Positions 57,918 to 64,000 of a stretch of DNA of 64,000 nucleotides are shown piece by piece. The stretch comes from Escherichia coli (GTDB taxonomy: Bacteria; Pseudomonadota; Gammaproteobacteria; Enterobacterales; Enterobacteriaceae). The notes under the pieces were generated by a model. It searched no databases. It saw nothing but the letters and a program-made list of their open reading frames with translations, and had not been told where the DNA came from. Position 1 is the stretch's first letter; every line of letters starts with the position of its first letter. Where the stretch lies: NCBI RefSeq assembly GCF_003334355.1, contig NZ_QOWP01000008.1. One strand, 5' to 3'. The position numbers were made by a program, and so were the translations under genes.

Positions 57918-58385
57918 ATGTCAGAACAAAACAACACCGAAATGACTTTCCAGATCCAACGTATTTATACCAAGGATATTTCTTTCGAAGCGCCGAACGC
58001 GCCGCACGTTTTCCAGAAAGATTGGCAGCCAGAAGTTAAACTTGATCTGGATACGGCATCTACTCAACTGGCAGATGACGTTTACGAAGTGGTACTGCGT
58101 GTTACCGTAACGGCCTCCCTGGGCGAAGAAACCGCGTTCCTGTGTGAAGTTCAGCAGGGCGGTATTTTCTCCATCGCGGGTATCGAAGGCACCCAGATGG
58201 CACATTGCCTGGGCGCATACTGCCCGAACATTCTGTTCCCGTATGCTCGTGAGTGCATCACCAGCATGGTATCCCGCGGTACATTCCCGCAACTGAACCT
58301 TGCGCCGGTTAACTTCGATGCGCTGTTCATGAACTATTTGCAGCAGCAGGCTGGCGAAGGTACTGAAGAACATCAGGATGCCTGA
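57918..58385 (+). CDS. secB: protein-export chaperone SecB, 155 aa
   Basis: [33 protein letters not shown]. Confidence 0.92.
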
Positions 58386-59404
58386 TGAACCAACGTAATG
58401 CTTCAATGACTGTGATCGGTGCCGGCTCGTACGGCACCGCTCTTGCCATTACCCTGGCAAGAAATGGCCACGAGGTTGTCCTCTGGGGCCATGACCCTGA
58501 ACATATCGCAACGCTTGAACGCGACCGCTGTAACGCCGCGTTTCTCCCCGATGTGCCTTTTCCCGATACGCTCCATCTTGAAAGCGATCTCGCCACTGCG
58601 CTGGCAGCCAGCCGTAATATTCTCGTCGTCGTACCCAGCCATGTCTTTGGTGAAGTGCTGCGCCAGATTAAACCGCTGATGCGTCCTGATGCGCGTCTGG
58701 TGTGGGCGACCAAAGGGCTGGAAGCGGAAACCGGGCGTCTGTTACAGGACGTGGCCCGCGAGGCGTTAGGCGATCAAATTCCGCTGGCGGTTATCTCTGG
58801 CCCAACGTTTGCGAAAGAACTGGCGGCAGGTTTACCGACAGCTATTTCGCTGGCCTCGACCGATCAGACCTTTGCTGATGATCTTCAGCAGCTGCTGCAC
58901 TGCGGCAAAAGTTTCCGCGTTTACAGTAACCCGGATTTCATTGGCGTGCAGCTTGGCGGCGCGGTGAAAAACGTCATTGCCATTGGTGCGGGGATGTCCG
59001 ACGGTATCGGTTTTGGTGCGAATGCGCGTACGGCGCTGATCACCCGTGGGCTGGCTGAAATGTCGCGTCTTGGCGCGGCGCTGGGTGCCGATCCTGCCAC
59101 CTTTATGGGCATGGCGGGGCTGGGGGATCTGGTGCTTACCTGTACCGACAACCAGTCGCGTAACCGCCGTTTTGGCATGATGCTCGGTCAGGGCATGGAT
59201 GTACAAAGCGCGCAGGAGAAGATTGGTCAGGTGGTGGAAGGCTACCGCAATACGAAAGAAGTCCGCGAACTGGCGCATCGCTTCGGCGTAGAAATGCCAA
59301 TAACCGAGGAAATTTATCAAGTATTATATTGCGGAAAAAACGCGCGCGAGGCAGCATTGACGTTATTAGGTCGTGCACGCAAGGACGAGCGCAGCAGCCA
59401 CTAA
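58385..59404 (+). CDS. gpsA: NAD(P)H-dependent glycerol-3-phosphate dehydrogenase, 339 aa
   Basis: [31 protein letters not shown]; start overlaps the secB stop. Confidence 0.9.
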
Positions 59405-59483
59405 CCCCAGGGAACCTTTGTTACCGCTATGACCCGGCCCGCGCAGAACGGGCCGGTCATTATCTCATCGTGTGGAGTAAGCA

Positions 59484-60305
59484 ATGTCGTGTGAAGAACT
59501 GGAAATTGTCTGGAACAATATTAAAGCCGAAGCCAGAACGCTGGCGGACTGTGAGCCAATGCTGGCCAGTTTTTACCACGCGACGCTACTCAAGCACGAA
59601 AACCTTGGAAGTGCACTGAGCTACATGCTGGCGAACAAGCTGTCATCGCCAATTATGCCTGCTATTGCTATCCGTGAAGTGGTGGAAGAAGCCTACGCCG
59701 CTGACCCGGAAATGATCGCCTCTGCGGCCTGTGATATTCAGGCGGTGCGTACCCGCGACCCGGCAGTCGATAAATACTCAACCCCGTTGTTATACCTGAA
59801 GGGTTTTCATGCCTTGCAGGCCTATCGCATCGGTCACTGGTTGTGGAATCAGGGGCGTCGCGCATTGGCAATCTTTCTGCAAAACCAGGTTTCTGTGACG
59901 TTCCAGGTCGATATTCACCCGGCAGCAAAAATTGGCCGTGGCATTATGCTCGACCACGCCACGGGCATCGTTGTGGGTGAAACGGCGGTAATTGAAAACG
60001 ACGTATCGATTCTGCAATCTGTGACGCTTGGCGGTACGGGTAAATCTGGTGGTGACCGTCACCCGAAAATTCGTGAAGGTGTGATGATTGGCGCGGGCGC
60101 GAAAATCCTCGGCAATATTGAAGTTGGTCGCGGCGCGAAGATTGGCGCAGGTTCCGTGGTGCTGCAACCGGTGCCGCCGCATACAACCGCCGCTGGCGTT
60201 CCGGCTCGTATTGTCGGTAAACCAGACAGCGATAAGCCATCAATGGATATGGACCAGCATTTCAACGGTATTAACCATACATTTGAGTATGGGGATGGGA
60301 TCTAA
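59484..60305 (+). CDS. cysE: serine O-acetyltransferase, 273 aa
   Basis: MSCEELEIVWNNIKAEARTLADCEPMLASFYHATLLKHEN; hexapeptide repeats. Confidence 0.92.
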   Translation: MSCEELEIVWNNIKAEARTLADCEPMLASFYHATLLKHENLGSALSYMLANKLSSPIMPAIAIREVVEEAYAADPEMIASAACDIQAVRTRDPAVDKYSTPLLYLKGFHALQAYRIGHWLWNQGRRALAIFLQNQVSVTFQVDIHPAAKIGRGIMLDHATGIVVGETAVIENDVSILQSVTLGGTGKSGGDRHPKIREGVMIGAGAKILGNIEVGRGAKIGAGSVVLQPVPPHTTAAGVPARIVGKPDSDKPSMDMDQHFNGINHTFEYGDGI

Positions 60306-60319
60306 TGTCCTGTGATCGT

Positions 60320-60348
60320 GCCGGATGCGATGTAATCATCTATCCGGC
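60320..60348. repeat. REP-like stem-loop between convergent cysE and trmL
   Basis: gccggat ... atccggc inverted repeat with a 15-nt loop. Confidence 0.4.
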
Positions 60349-60357
60349 ATACAGTAA

Positions 60358-60831
60358 CTAATCTCTCAACAACGCTCCCGGATATCCCAGCTGCCGCCAG
60401 GCTTCATACACCACAACTGACACCGCATTGGACAGGTTCATGCTGCGGCTGTCCGGCACCATCGGAATGCGAATTTTTTGTTCAGCGGGCAGGGCATCAA
60501 GAATGCTCGCTGGCAGGCCGCGTGTTTCCGGGCCGAACATCAGATAATCGCCATCCTGATAGCTTACGGCGCTATGAGCAGGCGTACCTTTCGTGGTGAG
60601 GGCAAACAGGCGCTGGGGATTTTCTGCTTCGAGGAACGCGCGAAAGTCATGATGACGCGTAACGGCGGTAAACTCGTGATAGTCCAGCCCCGCGCGGCGC
60701 AGGCGCTTATCGTCCCAGGCAAATCCCATCGGTTCGATGATATGCAGACGAAAGCCGGTATTAGCGCAAAGACGGATGATGTTGCCAGTATTTGGCGGAA
60801 TTTCTGGTTCGTAAAGTACGATGTTTAGCAT
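60358..60831 (-). CDS. trmL: tRNA (cytidine/uridine-34 2'-O)-methyltransferase (SPOUT family), 157 aa
   Basis: [37 protein letters not shown]. Confidence 0.85.
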
Positions 60832-60886
60832 ACTGCCCCCTTAGTGCGGGGGCAGGATAGCAGAAAATTGGTGAGCAGTGCGGCCT

Positions 60887-60977
60887 TTTCCCCTCACCCC
60901 GGCCTCCCCCTGTCTCTTGATCAGGAGATCTGATCAAGAGACAGCTCCCTGAGGGAGAGGGTTAGGGGGAGGGGGCG
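60887..60977. repeat. About 90-bp imperfect palindromic element; core is two head-to-head IS50 inside-end-like sequences flanked by C-rich and G-rich arms
   Basis: 60926-60944 reverse-complements to CTGTCTCTTGATCAGATCT (19/19 to the recalled IS50 IE); 60910-60928 CTGTCTCTTGATCAGGAGA (15/19); 14-bp perfect inverted repeat ctgtctcttgatca around the centre ggagatc; flanks ccctcaccccggcctcccc and gggagagggttagggggagggggcgc. Confidence 0.55.
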
Positions 60978-60984
60978 CAAACGA

Positions 60985-62175
60985 CTATGCCGCATTCCCT
61001 TTCGCCATCGGGGCCAGTGCCGCAGGCAACTCTTTACCCAGCCCCTGCACCAGCGAATCTTGCGTAATTTCGCTGATCGATTTCGCGCCAGTCAGCGTCA
61101 TCGCCACTTTCATCTCTTTTTCGATCAGATTTAGCAGGTTAGCTACACCCGCCTGGCCCGCTGTTGCCAGCGCATACAAGAAAGCACGACCCAGCAGTAC
61201 GGTGTCGGCACCGAGCGCAATCATACGCACGACATCAAGCCCGTTACGAATTCCGCTATCCGCCAGAATGGCTATATCACCTTTCACCGCATCTGCAATA
61301 GCAGGCAGTGCACGGGCGGAAGAGAGTACACCGTCCAGCTGGCGGCCACCGTGGTTAGAAACCACAATTCCATCAGCACCAAAACGTACTGCATCGCGCG
61401 CATCTTCCGGATCGAGGATCCCTTTGATCACCATCGGGCCATCCCAGAAATCGCGGATCCATTCAAGGTCTTTCCATGAGATGGACGGATCGAAGTTATT
61501 CCCCAGCCAGCCGATGTAATCTTCCAGTCCGGTCGGTTTGCCGAGATAAGCTGAGATATTACCTAAATCATGTGGACGACCGTTCAGGCCCACATCCCAC
61601 GCCCATTGCGGATGTGTCACCGCTTGCAAGTAGCGGCGCATTGCCGCGTTCGGGCCGCTCATACCTGAATGCGCATCACGGTAGCGTGCGCCCGGTGTCG
61701 GCATATCCACGGTGAAAACCAGCGTCGAACAACCCGCTGCTTTTGCTCGCTCCAGCGCGTTACGCATAAAGCCGCGATCGCGCAGTACATAAAGCTGGAA
61801 CCACATTGGGCGCTTGATGGCTGGCGCGACTTCTTCAATCGGGCAAACGGAAACCGTCGAGAGAGTAAACGGAATACCATGCGCGTCCGCCGCTTTGGCT
61901 GCCTGAACTTCGCCACGACGCGCATACATGCCACACAAACCCACCGGAGCCAGTGCCACCGGCATCGACAATTTCTCATTAAACAGCGTCGTTTCCAGGC
62001 TTAAGTCGGACATGTTTTTCAGAATACGCTGGCGCAGCGCCACTTCTGACAAATCTTCCACGTTGCGGCGCAGCGTGTATTCAGAATATGCACCACCATC
62101 CATATAGTGGAACAGGAACGGCGGCAGAATGCGTTGCGCTGCGGCGCGATAATCGCTGGCTGCGGAAATAATCAT
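60985..62175 (-). CDS. lldD: L-lactate dehydrogenase (FMN-dependent), 396 aa
   Basis: [43 protein letters not shown]; alpha-hydroxy-acid oxidase family. Confidence 0.9.
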
Positions 62176-62948
62176 GCGTTTTTCTCCCTCGAATGCTCAT
62201 TATGCTCACCGGGCAGGCGGGTAATCCGTGCGTGGCGAGCCTGATCTTCATCGAATCGTTTCATGGTGGTGTGAACAAAACTAAGGTGCGCCATCATTGC
62301 TTTACGCGCCCCGTCAGCATCACCGGCAAAAATGGCGTCAATGACAGCCTGATGTTGTTCGGTCAGTTGTGAAAAAACCGGTGGCACCAGATACATCCGC
62401 TGACGGCTATGCTTCACTGAGGATTGCAGGACATCGAAGAAACCGCGCATGGTTTGCAGCAGCACGATGTTATGTGAGGCTTCGGCAATCGCCAGATGAA
62501 AACGAACGTCCGCTTGTGAGGCGATATCCGGGTCTTCACTTAGCGTTGCTTCAAAGCAAAGCTGAATCTTTTCTTTGTCGCCAGGTGTGGCGCGCATTGC
62601 CGCATGCCATGCGGTGCTGGCTTCAATGGCGTAGCGGGCTTCCAGAATATCGAAACTGTAATCCGGATCATCGGCCATCAGTGTTTTTAGCGGCTGGACG
62701 ATGTTTTGCTCCGACCATGTGTCATGACGCCAGCGAATAAACGTCCCGCCGCCGCGTCGACTGAGCAGCACGCCTTCACTCACCAGTTTTGCCAGCGCCT
62801 CGCGCAGTGAATTACGTGATACGCCGAGTTGCATCGCCAGTTGGCGCTCAGCGGGCAACTTCATGCCCGCTTCCAGGTTTTTTTCATCAATCAGCGCCCG
62901 CACACGATCGGCAACCTCGTCTGACAGGCGTCTGGGTAAAACAATCAT
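62172..62948 (-). CDS. lldR: GntR/FadR-family L-lactate operon regulator, 258 aa
   Basis: ORF 62172..62963; start [20 protein letters not shown] (ATG 62946-62948); N-terminal wHTH. Confidence 0.85.
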
Positions 62949-64000
62949 TAAGGAATCATCCACGTTAAGACATAAGCCTGAAGCGTGGTGATCACGCCCA
63001 CTATACAGGTGAAGATCAGGCTGTGTTTGACAGTAAAGCGGAACAAATCAGACTCTTTGCCCACCAGGCCTACCGCCGCACAGGCGATAGCGATAGATTG
63101 CGGGGAGATCATCTTACCGGTGACGCCACCGGTGGTATTGGCGGCAACCAGCAACAGATCAGAGACGCCAATTTGTTGTGCTGCGGTGGCTTGCAGCGCG
63201 GCGAACAGGGCGTTAGATGAGGTATCCGACCCGGTCAGGAATACCCCCAGCCAGCCGAGGAACGGCGAGAAGAAGGTGAATGCATGACCGGTGTGCGCCA
63301 GTGCCAGCGCCAGTGTTGATGACAGTCCGGAATAGTTCGAAATAAAGGCGAATGCCAGCACCATACCGATGGAGTAGATGGGCAGAGCCAGTTCTTTCAG
63401 CGTGCTGCCGAAGGTGCTGATAGCGTCAGACGGTTTCATCTTCAGCCAGACAATCGAGAGCAGTGCAGCAAACAGAATGGCGGTGCCGGTGGCAGAGAAC
63501 CAGTCAAACTTAAACACGGCGGCATAGGCTGTAGCCTCGCTGACCACTGGCGGCATACGGGCAACCAGTTTATCGAGGTACGGCACCGGAATATTGATCA
63601 CCCACTCATACAGCGCGCCACCCGATGCGAACAGGGCTTTAAACGGCGGGATACTCCACAGTGTTACGGTAGCTGTCAGGAACAGGAACGGTGTCCAGGC
63701 ACGTAACACCTGACCCGCAGTGTAACCGGTGTGGGCCAGCGTCATATCAACCTGTGACGCCCCCAAATCACCAAAACGGAATACACGCACTGGCTGCCAG
63801 CGTTTGAGGAACAGCGTCAGGCAGAGCAGTGATACCAGCGAAGAGATAATGTCCGGCAGCTCCGGCCCAATGAAGTTAGAGCTAAGGTACTGAGCGATGG
63901 CAAACGAGCCGCCCGCAACCACGACCGCAGGCCACGTCTCTTTGATACCGCGCCAGCCGTCCATAATCGCCATGATCCAGAACAGCACGATAATGGTCAT
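62948..64000 (-). CDS. lldP: L-lactate permease, C-terminal about 350 codons (5' end beyond window)
   Basis: polytopic membrane ORF running to the window edge; stop overlaps the lldR start by 1 nt; completes the lldPRD operon order. Confidence 0.85.

Follow-up and report, generated by a model that had tools for sequence, protein, structure and literature searches.

A 35-bp palindrome in the lldD-trmL spacer of Escherichia coli is very probably an orphan relic of an IS50-like insertion sequence inside a BoxC element

The spacer between lldD and trmL in Escherichia coli carries a GC-rich palindrome, at the heart of which lies a sequence that reads like the inside end of IS50. How did a Tn5-type end come to sit in a chromosomal spacer, and does it do anything there? 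We addressed this question in a 64,000-nt stretch of E. coli DNA (hereafter, the window). An earlier note, made from the letters alone, had recognized two head-to-head inside-end-like sequences at this site. Its candidates were a miniature inverted-repeat element, a solo-end relic akin to the termini of the IS4 family, a member of some known family of intergenic palindromic repeats, and a hairpin acting as the lldPRD terminator. Comparing the sequence with other genomes, we find that the 35-bp palindrome is very probably an orphan relic, derived from an insertion sequence (IS) of the IS50 subgroup (IS4 family) and lodged inside a BoxC element. The coordinates of the features are collected in Table 1.

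Table 1 Features of the lldD-trmL region in the window
Feature	Position	Strand	Basis or remark
lldD ORF	60985-62175	-	Annotation in matching genomes
lldD-trmL spacer, 153 bp	60832..60984	-	Comprises lldD 3' region and trmL 5' region
trmL ORF	60358-60831	-	Annotation in matching genomes
C-rich arm CCCCTCACCCCGGCCTCCCC	60890..60909	+	About the first 20 nt of the BoxC/TMECO no. 18 reverse complement, with small deletions
35-bp palindrome CTGTCTCTTGATCAG-GAGAT-CTGATCAAGAGACAG	60910..60944	.	Inverted-repeat finder; very probably IS-derived core
33 bp equal to the right terminus of a 1564-bp IS50-like IS	60912..60944	+	BLAST of the IS against the window, 100%
IS50 inside-end 19-mer, exact	60926..60944	-	0 mismatches; putative transposase binding site
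Three GATC (Dam) sites, starts 60919, 60927, 60932	60919..60935	.	Window average 4.1 GATC per kb
G-rich arm CTCCCTGAGGGAGAGGGTTAGGGGGAGGGGG	60945..60975	+	BoxC/TMECO no. 17 without the initial 4 nt and with a single T-to-G substitution

Performing an inverted-repeat search, we resolved the core into two arms of 15 bp (60910-60924 and 60930-60944) that are 100% complementary and are separated by a 5-nt spacer. The minus-strand sequence CTGTCTCTTGATCAGATCT (60926-60944) agrees with the IS50 inside end at all 19 positions, as had been claimed, and occurs once in the 64-kb window with 0 mismatches. No second match was found in the window at up to 3 mismatches, and 100 shuffles produced no match at this tolerance, so a chance match is indeed unlikely. 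The inside-end sequence given in the earlier note is correct: the IS50 junction …GGGGATCAAGATCTGATCAAGAGACAG/GATGAGG… (a slash marks a junction here and below) adjoins aph(3')-IIa at 100% identity in more than 220 plasmids that bear Tn5. The 19-mer is also part of a published primer for the nptII promoter region (PMC5458577), and a literature search by sequence returned the 15-mer and the 19-mer only as Tn5/nptII primers and vector sequence. On the plus strand, the partner CTGTCTCTTGATCAGGAGA (60910-60928) matches the inside-end 19-mer at 15 of 19 positions, which reproduces the earlier count. The two 19-mers had been described as separated by 7 bp; instead, they overlap by 3 bp (60926-60928). 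A tblastn search with the cognate transposase (see below) found no transposase gene in the 64-kb window, the best E being 5.9, in agreement with the earlier reading.

The source of the core emerged when the spacer was compared by BLAST with 5426 complete E. coli genomes: the search unexpectedly also matched features annotated as 'IS4 family transposase'. Aligning two complete plasmid copies, we placed the bounds of this IS at L004:1311-2874, a length of 1564 bp. It is hosted by E. coli, E. fergusonii, and E. whittamii, and it has diverged relatives in Serratia, Budvicia, and Rahnella. Positions 1532-1564 of the IS are 100% identical (BLAST) to window 60912-60944. The core thus shares its terminus, 33 of 33 nt, with the end of a bona fide IS4-family DDE transposase element, which favors the solo-end relic among the candidates named at the outset. 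The IS tip falls at 60944, and the IS body would have been leftward of the relic. The element encodes an intact 457-aa transposase, a full-length homologue of the Tn5 transposase (1MUH, 1MUS, 4DM0; E 1e-83) that matches the NCBIfam model transpos_IS4_3 with 506 bits against a cut-off of 160. Its left end, CTGTCTCTTATACACAAGT, is outside-end/mosaic-end-like, and its right end is the IS50 inside-end 19-mer. The complete copies are flanked by 9-bp direct target duplications, namely CTGCAAGAA twice (9/9) in L005 and GGATAAGTA/GGATAAGCA (8/9) in L004.

The earlier note had matched the end to IS50/Tn5; the source is a distinct IS50-like IS and not IS50 itself. The window and IS50 have the terminal 19 bp in common (plus strand, AGATCTGATCAAGAGACAG), Dam GATC sites included, and the transposases are homologous along their full length. 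However, identity inward from the tip extends for 33 nt to the IS50-like IS and stops after 19 nt with IS50, which continues …GGGGATCAAG where the window reads …CTTGATCAGG. Moreover, IS50 is without the 13-15-bp sub-terminal inverted repeat, and, at its fourth position, the left end CTGTCTCTTATACACAAGT of the source IS departs from the Tn5 outside end. The same observations bear on the idea that the sequenced strain carries a laboratory Tn5 or mini-Tn5 scar or a vector fragment. The 19-mer is the I end of mini-Tn5 vectors and is present in the nptII promoter region, which would suit such a scar. Against it, the allele occurs in 809 independent genomes and 13 metagenome contigs, and the IS50 identity ends at 19 nt whereas the identity to the natural IS reaches 33 nt. 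A laboratory origin, to which we give practically no chance, is ruled out by these findings.

The palindrome is largely a property of the IS itself. The last 33 bp of the element form a hairpin in which the codons of …SLDQEI-stop are an inverted copy of the terminal repeat. In L001, L004, and L005, …ATGAAGTCTCTTGATCAGGAGATCTGATCAAGAGACAG is at once the 3' end of the transposase ORF (…KSLDQEI-stop) and the end of the element, while L002 has a 1-nt spacer variant of this terminus, with the ORF ending …ESLDQEL-stop. Just before the 33-mer, the window has CT where the IS has AA or GA, and CT perfects the palindrome. Because the window matches the IS right terminus for 33 nt, including the sub-terminal repeat, the plus-strand partner is not a second end. 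Hence, of the two head-to-head inside ends first described, the minus-strand 19-mer stands, and its partner is the sub-terminal inverted repeat of the IS.

What, then, are the C-rich and G-rich imperfect inverted arms that had been seen on either side? Both are present, and we identified them by comparing the window with the K-12-type allele (L003) and with the MG1655 motifs in Table 1 of Holder et al. 2015 (PMC4666352). These authors list 23 BoxC/PIT/TMECO intrastrand-triplex motifs in MG1655, of which no. 17 (CCCTCTCCCTGAGGGAGAGGGTTAGGGTGAGGGG, 3,781,061-3,781,028) and no. 18 (3,781,121-3,781,156) are an inverted pair (PMC4666352). The arms are remnants of these two motifs from the same spacer. 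They conform to the published motif, CCCTCTCCC-loop-GGGAGAGGG-TTA-GGGTGAGGGG, and belong to a dispersed family: a 79-nt BoxC query matched a median of 7 and a maximum of 17 places per E. coli genome. The proposal of a known intergenic palindromic repeat family therefore holds for the flanking arms (BoxC/PIT/TMECO) and fails for the 35-bp core, which is not BoxC.

In the K-12-type allele, no. 17 (exact) and the reverse complement of no. 18 both lie in the lldD-trmL spacer, in the order no. 18 (reverse complement), a 59-bp single-copy piece, and no. 17 (L003:601-797). In the window allele, the order is a part of no. 18 (60890-60909), the 35-mer, and a part of no. 17 (60945-60975), and the 59-bp piece is gone. 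The latter occurs in 2715 of the 5426 genomes, once in each. We considered and rejected it as a repeat or an IS remnant of its own, since it is single-copy and the K-12-type locus is without an IS match. Within L003:601-797, the 9-bp CCCTCTCCC also recurs as a direct repeat, 73 bp apart.

Comparing the spacer across strains, we found that the relic is polymorphic for presence and absence. The window allele is present in 809 of the 5426 complete E. coli genomes (~15%), including those of B, C, W/KO11FL, and Crooks (ATCC 8739), and is absent from ~85%. Its carriers come from human, animal, and water sources, and 13 metagenome contigs have it too. Six further length classes of the spacer were found (197, 185, 154, 102, 72, and 47 bp). 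The site is thus polymorphic rather than universally conserved, and the inside end as given there is exact, the two points on which the earlier note had made its reading depend. TMECO loci, especially inverted pairs, are reported to be hypervariable and unstable (PMC4666352), and the hypervariability of this locus agrees with that report. Holder et al. also state that transposase remnants were never encountered at TMECO sites (PMC4666352). The window allele and the Serratia and Escherichia loci described below are counter-examples.

Among the matches listed for the 5426 genomes, those at 35 of 35 nt were all unannotated, like the lldD-trmL spacer, and those at 33 of 35 nt lay under IS4-family transposase annotations, including O157:H7. 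No second copy of the 33-mer was found on the E. coli B chromosome. Using a chimeric query of flank plus IS left end, we looked for a full IS at lldD-trmL; the query was covered by more than 57% in 0 of the 5426 genomes. An uninterrupted BoxC 'empty site' at lldD-trmL was likewise found in none of the E. coli genomes, every match being in two pieces.

Is the 35-mer peculiar to this spacer? Scanning one genome per species for the exact 33-mer, we counted 8 copies in Budvicia aquatica, 6 in Serratia silvae, 3 in E. whittamii, and 2 in Escherichia sp. MOD1-EC7003; it is also present in S. proteamaculans, two Rahnella species, and Salmonella diarizonae. Copies that follow …GAA run into IS-internal sequence that is ~76-82% identical to the E. 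coli IS, while the terminal 33 bp are identical. Ten copies follow CT and are solo 35-mers, at unrelated loci. Altogether, solo 35-mers identical to that of the window lie at 12 other distinct loci, making 13 with the window, in at least five genera. Five of the 12 are in S. silvae, two in Escherichia sp. MOD1-EC7003, and one each in S. proteamaculans, Budvicia aquatica, and Salmonella diarizonae; the remaining two are on three metagenome contigs. The sampled S. silvae contigs carry the five solos and an 88-bp non-palindromic fragment of the IS right end (L019) with the same kind of flanks as the solos, and no full-length IS. Most copies, solo or not, lie within BoxC-like CCCTCTCCC…GGGAGAGGG hairpins, and those of Budvicia and Rahnella lie in other REP-like hairpins. 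A comparison of the two MOD1-EC7003 solos, L032 (downstream of folA) and L033, with E. coli gave an alignment of flanking coding sequence alone.

In the draft genome of Budvicia aquatica (L011-L018), seven of the eight 33-mers are IS right ends, most of them near contig ends. Six of these seven lie directly against a single REP-like palindrome, which is met in both orientations (GTTGAAAAACGGGG / GTTTTTCAACGGGG). These positions suggest that the IS has expanded in this genome and thereby breaks up its assembly. For ~34 nt, the sequence to the left of the Budvicia solo reads as the reverse complement of that to the right of the Salmonella diarizonae solo (AGCCTGGCTGGGRGTTTTCYATAGACAAAAA; L015:6480-6519, L030 minus), and it appears that one conserved sequence was struck in opposite orientations in the two. 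The Salmonella copy of AGCCTGGCTGGGRGTTTTCYATAGACAAAAA sits beside a duplicated tRNA-like 3' segment. In Rahnella perminowiae, we found a 281-bp, two-ended, internally deleted derivative of the IS (L026:892-1172). Its left end CTGACTCTTATACACAAAT matches the Tn5 outside end at 18 of 19 positions, its right end is the conserved hairpin, and it is flanked by a direct duplication of ~8 bp (GCGAAGGG/GCGAAGGT). The derivative is a genuine MITE-sized relative.

Aligning the flanks, we noticed a strict target rule. A G occupies position +13 in 31 of 31 distinct right flanks (L001-L044 plus window 60945-60975; IS ends and solos), and positions +11 to +14 are nearly all purines. On the other side, a C at -13 in 12 of 14 solo left flanks mirrors the right-flank rule. 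From these alignments, the rule implies that the IS family would insert into C-run-N9-G-run palindromes. Escherichia and Serratia offer such targets in BoxC/TMECO, and Budvicia and Rahnella in other REP-like hairpins.

Target duplications behave differently at the solos. A perfect direct 9-bp duplication was found at none of the 13 distinct solo loci, the best case being 7/9 (L044). In the window, the left nine nucleotides are GGCCTCCCC and the right nine are CTCCCTGAG; the closest direct repeat is 6/7 (CCCCCTG/CTCCCTG), if CTG is counted as host. Given that there is no duplication, the junctions of the window relic are remodelled. Several solos have inverted rather than direct flanks, as seen in L023 (CCCACAGGG-AG / CCCTGTGGG), L037 (CCCCTGCGA / TTCGCAGGG), L020, and L031. 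At five loci, two extra nucleotides sit between the 35-mer and the CCC-loop-GGG target: AG on the left in L020, L021, L023, and L025, and CT on the right in the window (60945-60946). None of the models that we considered explains them.

How could the relic have arisen? That it derives from an IS inserted in BoxC/TMECO no. 17 is well supported. Within the lldD-trmL spacer, the target would have been the first hairpin of this motif, and the insertion would have left the right junction GAGACAG/CTCCCTGAG-GGAGAGGG intact. A later loss would have removed the IS body along with the 59-bp spacer between the BoxC motifs and a part of no. 18. The precursor, a full IS at lldD-trmL, is hypothetical, because no such allele was found in the 5426 genomes. 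The IS contains a 7-bp direct repeat, GTCTCTT: one copy occupies positions 3-9 at the left end (CTGTCTCTT/ATAC…), the other lies 33 bp inward of the right tip (…AAGTCTCTT/GATCAG…), and the left end CTGTCTCTTATACACAAGT provides the CT plus GTCTCTT that the 35-mer needs. A slipped deletion between the two GTCTCTT copies would yield exactly CT plus 33 bp. It would be the most economical route and could recur; we regard it as a fair candidate, though short of probable. Small palindrome-associated deletions may then have reshaped the left junction. The data show the sequence identity to the IS end, the nature of the transposase, the polymorphism, the BoxC identity of the arms, the recurrence of identical solos at other loci, and the target rule. 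What we infer is the sequence in which events took place, the mechanism of the deletion, and the present lack of function.

The junctions are where this scheme meets difficulty. The GTCTCTT model predicts intact direct 9-bp duplications, and none is seen at the solos; inverted flanks are not predicted by a simple two-junction deletion model. Alternatively, the junctions might come from a fold-back template switch at the terminal hairpin or from quasi-palindrome correction after the deletion. As a third possibility, the flanks might have been supplied by two inverted BoxC units, like nos 17 and 18. None of the three fits every junction. We rejected two further mechanisms: transposon-end hairpin intermediates would give tip-to-tip palindromes, which is the wrong geometry, and in an inversion between BoxC arms direct repeats would stay direct.

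A fold-back might even make the solo palindromes outright. In such an intrastrand template switch, a nascent strand that replicates through the terminal hairpin of the IS would turn back on itself, copy the right arm and its flank outward, and then pair anew with the opposite arm of the target palindrome. This would erase the IS in one step and turn the flanks inverted. It would account for CT in place of the IS-internal AA/GA (CT is the complement of the terminal AG), for the inverted flanks in L023, L020, L031, and L037, and for the palindromic targets of the solos. In addition, deletions at inverted TMECO pairs tend to keep hairpin potential (PMC4666352). However, the expected symmetry is off by 1-5 nt everywhere (AG in L023/L020, T in L037, CCCCT in L044), and the left flank of the window is not complementary to the right flank. 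The non-palindromic 88-bp L019 has the same kind of flanks, and the inverted flanks may be no more than a sign of BoxC units that are paired in inverted orientation, as nos 17 and 18 are. We hold this route to be unlikely.

The recurrence of the 35-mer raised the question of whether it moves by itself, as a minimal MITE that would be mobilised in trans by an IS50-like transposase and would have arrived in the lldD-trmL BoxC by transposition. Like MITEs, it is short, non-autonomous, intergenic, and hairpin-capable, and its terminal inverted repeats (15-bp perfect arms) match the end of the parent IS. Identical 35-mers occupy 13 distinct loci in at least five genera, with five in S. silvae contigs without a full-length IS; both solo junctions follow the target geometry of genuine IS ends, and the two-ended 281-bp Rahnella derivative (L026) has a direct duplication. 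Nevertheless, multiple dispersed copies with target duplications are not what we see: no solo has a perfect 9-bp direct duplication, whereas the two-ended L004, L005, and L026 have duplications. The 35-mer is also far under the usual size of MITEs and comes with no evidence of mobility. The miniature element suggested before, read as a multicopy one in E. coli, does not fit a sequence that has a single locus among the matches listed and no clean target duplication, nor the annotation contrast between the 35/35 and 33/35 matches given above. The Tn5 synaptic complex has length constraints on the looping of DNA between its ends. By analogy, it would be sterically implausible for a 35-bp element whose 19-bp binding sites share 3 bp to loop into a synaptic complex of the Tn5 type. 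We therefore consider a mobile 35-mer very unlikely. Being without a transposase, and with two overlapping binding sites that would be unable to synapse, the relic is most likely inert.

The relic is an ordinary kind of object, being what remains of an IS in a repeat already described and at a locus already known to be hypervariable. A close parallel is found in Tn10. Nearly precise excision of Tn10 leaves remnants of 50 bp that keep the 9-bp target duplication. It was reportedly described by Ross, Swan and Kleckner in 1979 and by Foster et al. in 1981. In both cases, what is left is a short palindrome of transposon-terminal sequence only, its formation would be independent of transposase, and it can be explained by deletion between short direct repeats paired by inverted repeats. 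In contrast, the present remnant measures 35 bp, comes from a single IS with a sub-terminal repeat, and shows no clean duplications. Its composition would fit a Tn10-type remnant, with CT plus GTCTCTT of the left end joined to the sub-terminal repeat; the target duplication, however, is not intact.

The target rule also has its parallels. Several ISs target REP sequences, namely IS1397/ISKpn1, IS621, and the IS4-family ISRm22 (Tobes and Pareja 2006, PMC1525189), and Tn5 favors palindromic 9-bp targets with G/C at the ends (PMC1525189). The IS50-like family would resemble the former by inserting into the loop region of short GC-rich extragenic palindromes, and C-run-N9-G-run echoes the latter. 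Unlike the REP-targeting ISs, it is a clade of the IS50 subgroup, its targets are BoxC-like triplex motifs or other REP-like hairpins rather than PU/BIME units, and it leaves recurrent 35-bp palindromic scars. In the searchable literature, we found no description of the family pattern, that is, a terminal hairpin, a strict target rule, and cross-genus 35-bp scars with non-canonical flanks. It is tempting to think of an IS50-like clade of Enterobacterales that prefers hairpin- or triplex-forming C-run-N9-G-run repeats (BoxC/TMECO and other REP-like units) as targets and undergoes a stereotyped self-deletion via its conserved terminal hairpin, leaving identical 35-bp scars, but we consider this rather doubtful. 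Were it true, transposition followed by scarring would be among the causes, so far unrecognised, of the 'unexplained' hypervariability at BoxC/TMECO loci, and the scars would be dormant exact Tn5-type transposase binding sites in E. coli B, C, and W.

Apart from this reading, the exact Tn5 inside end in chromosomes of the E. coli B, C, W, and Crooks type would be the scar of a natural IS50 relative and not of Tn5. BoxC/PIT/TMECO triplex motifs, which were reported to be hypervariable and never associated with mobile elements, would become tied to a transposon that targets them. The recurrent 35-bp scar in at least five genera, with its non-textbook flanks, offers a handle on palindrome- or hairpin-driven IS loss. 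In practical terms, carriers of the allele have an exact Tn5 inside end, as well as CTGTCTCTT, which matches the Nextera mosaic end; this could be of marginal relevance for Tn5 mutagenesis or adapter trimming.

Does the relic serve the lld operon? Folding the minus-strand spacer RNA, we obtained a single long composite hairpin, capped by the 35-mer (-80.5 kcal/mol, z = -5.4); it directly follows the lldD stop codon, 78 nt ahead of the trmL start. This great stability and the position speak for a selected element, be it a terminator, a stabiliser of the mRNA 3' end, or a regulator of trmL. However, no U tract follows the GC-rich hairpin on the minus strand, where the sequence continues with GGGGAAAAGGCCGCAC, and the only terminator-like match in a terminator scan was a trivial 5-bp stem inside the element. 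A search of 58000-64000 against Rfam gave no family match at the feature. The allele is missing from ~85% of E. coli genomes, with spacers ranging from 47 to 197 bp, and BoxC/PIT elements are reported to be without promoter or terminator activity (PMC4666352, citing Maher's group). The lldPRD terminator suggested earlier is thus reduced to a strong hairpin in a minority allele, and a selected function in the operon seems highly improbable. Because the allele is absent from most genomes and BoxC/PIT show no promoter or terminator activity, we judge the relic to be a neutral scar. Its effect is likely structural only, through a longer BoxC hairpin in the lldD 3' UTR or a DNA cruciform, and the three clustered Dam sites may add to these minor effects. 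Our understanding of lldD or trmL function is unaffected.

Two other features near trmL were observed in passing. Between cysE and trmL, window 60314-60349 (minus strand) gave a sub-threshold Rfam match to naRNA4 (CssrE; a REP-derived RNA), scoring 23.7 bits (E 0.53) where the gathering threshold is 59.5; judged by its letters, GCCGGATGCG…CATCCGGCA, this appears to be a common REP unit. At window 60830-60858, the hairpin ACTGCCCCC-TTAGTGC-GGGGGCAG overlaps the trmL start codon and the Shine-Dalgarno region. Since it is kept in all seven spacer alleles examined (7/7), including the 47-bp one, this hairpin may control trmL translation.
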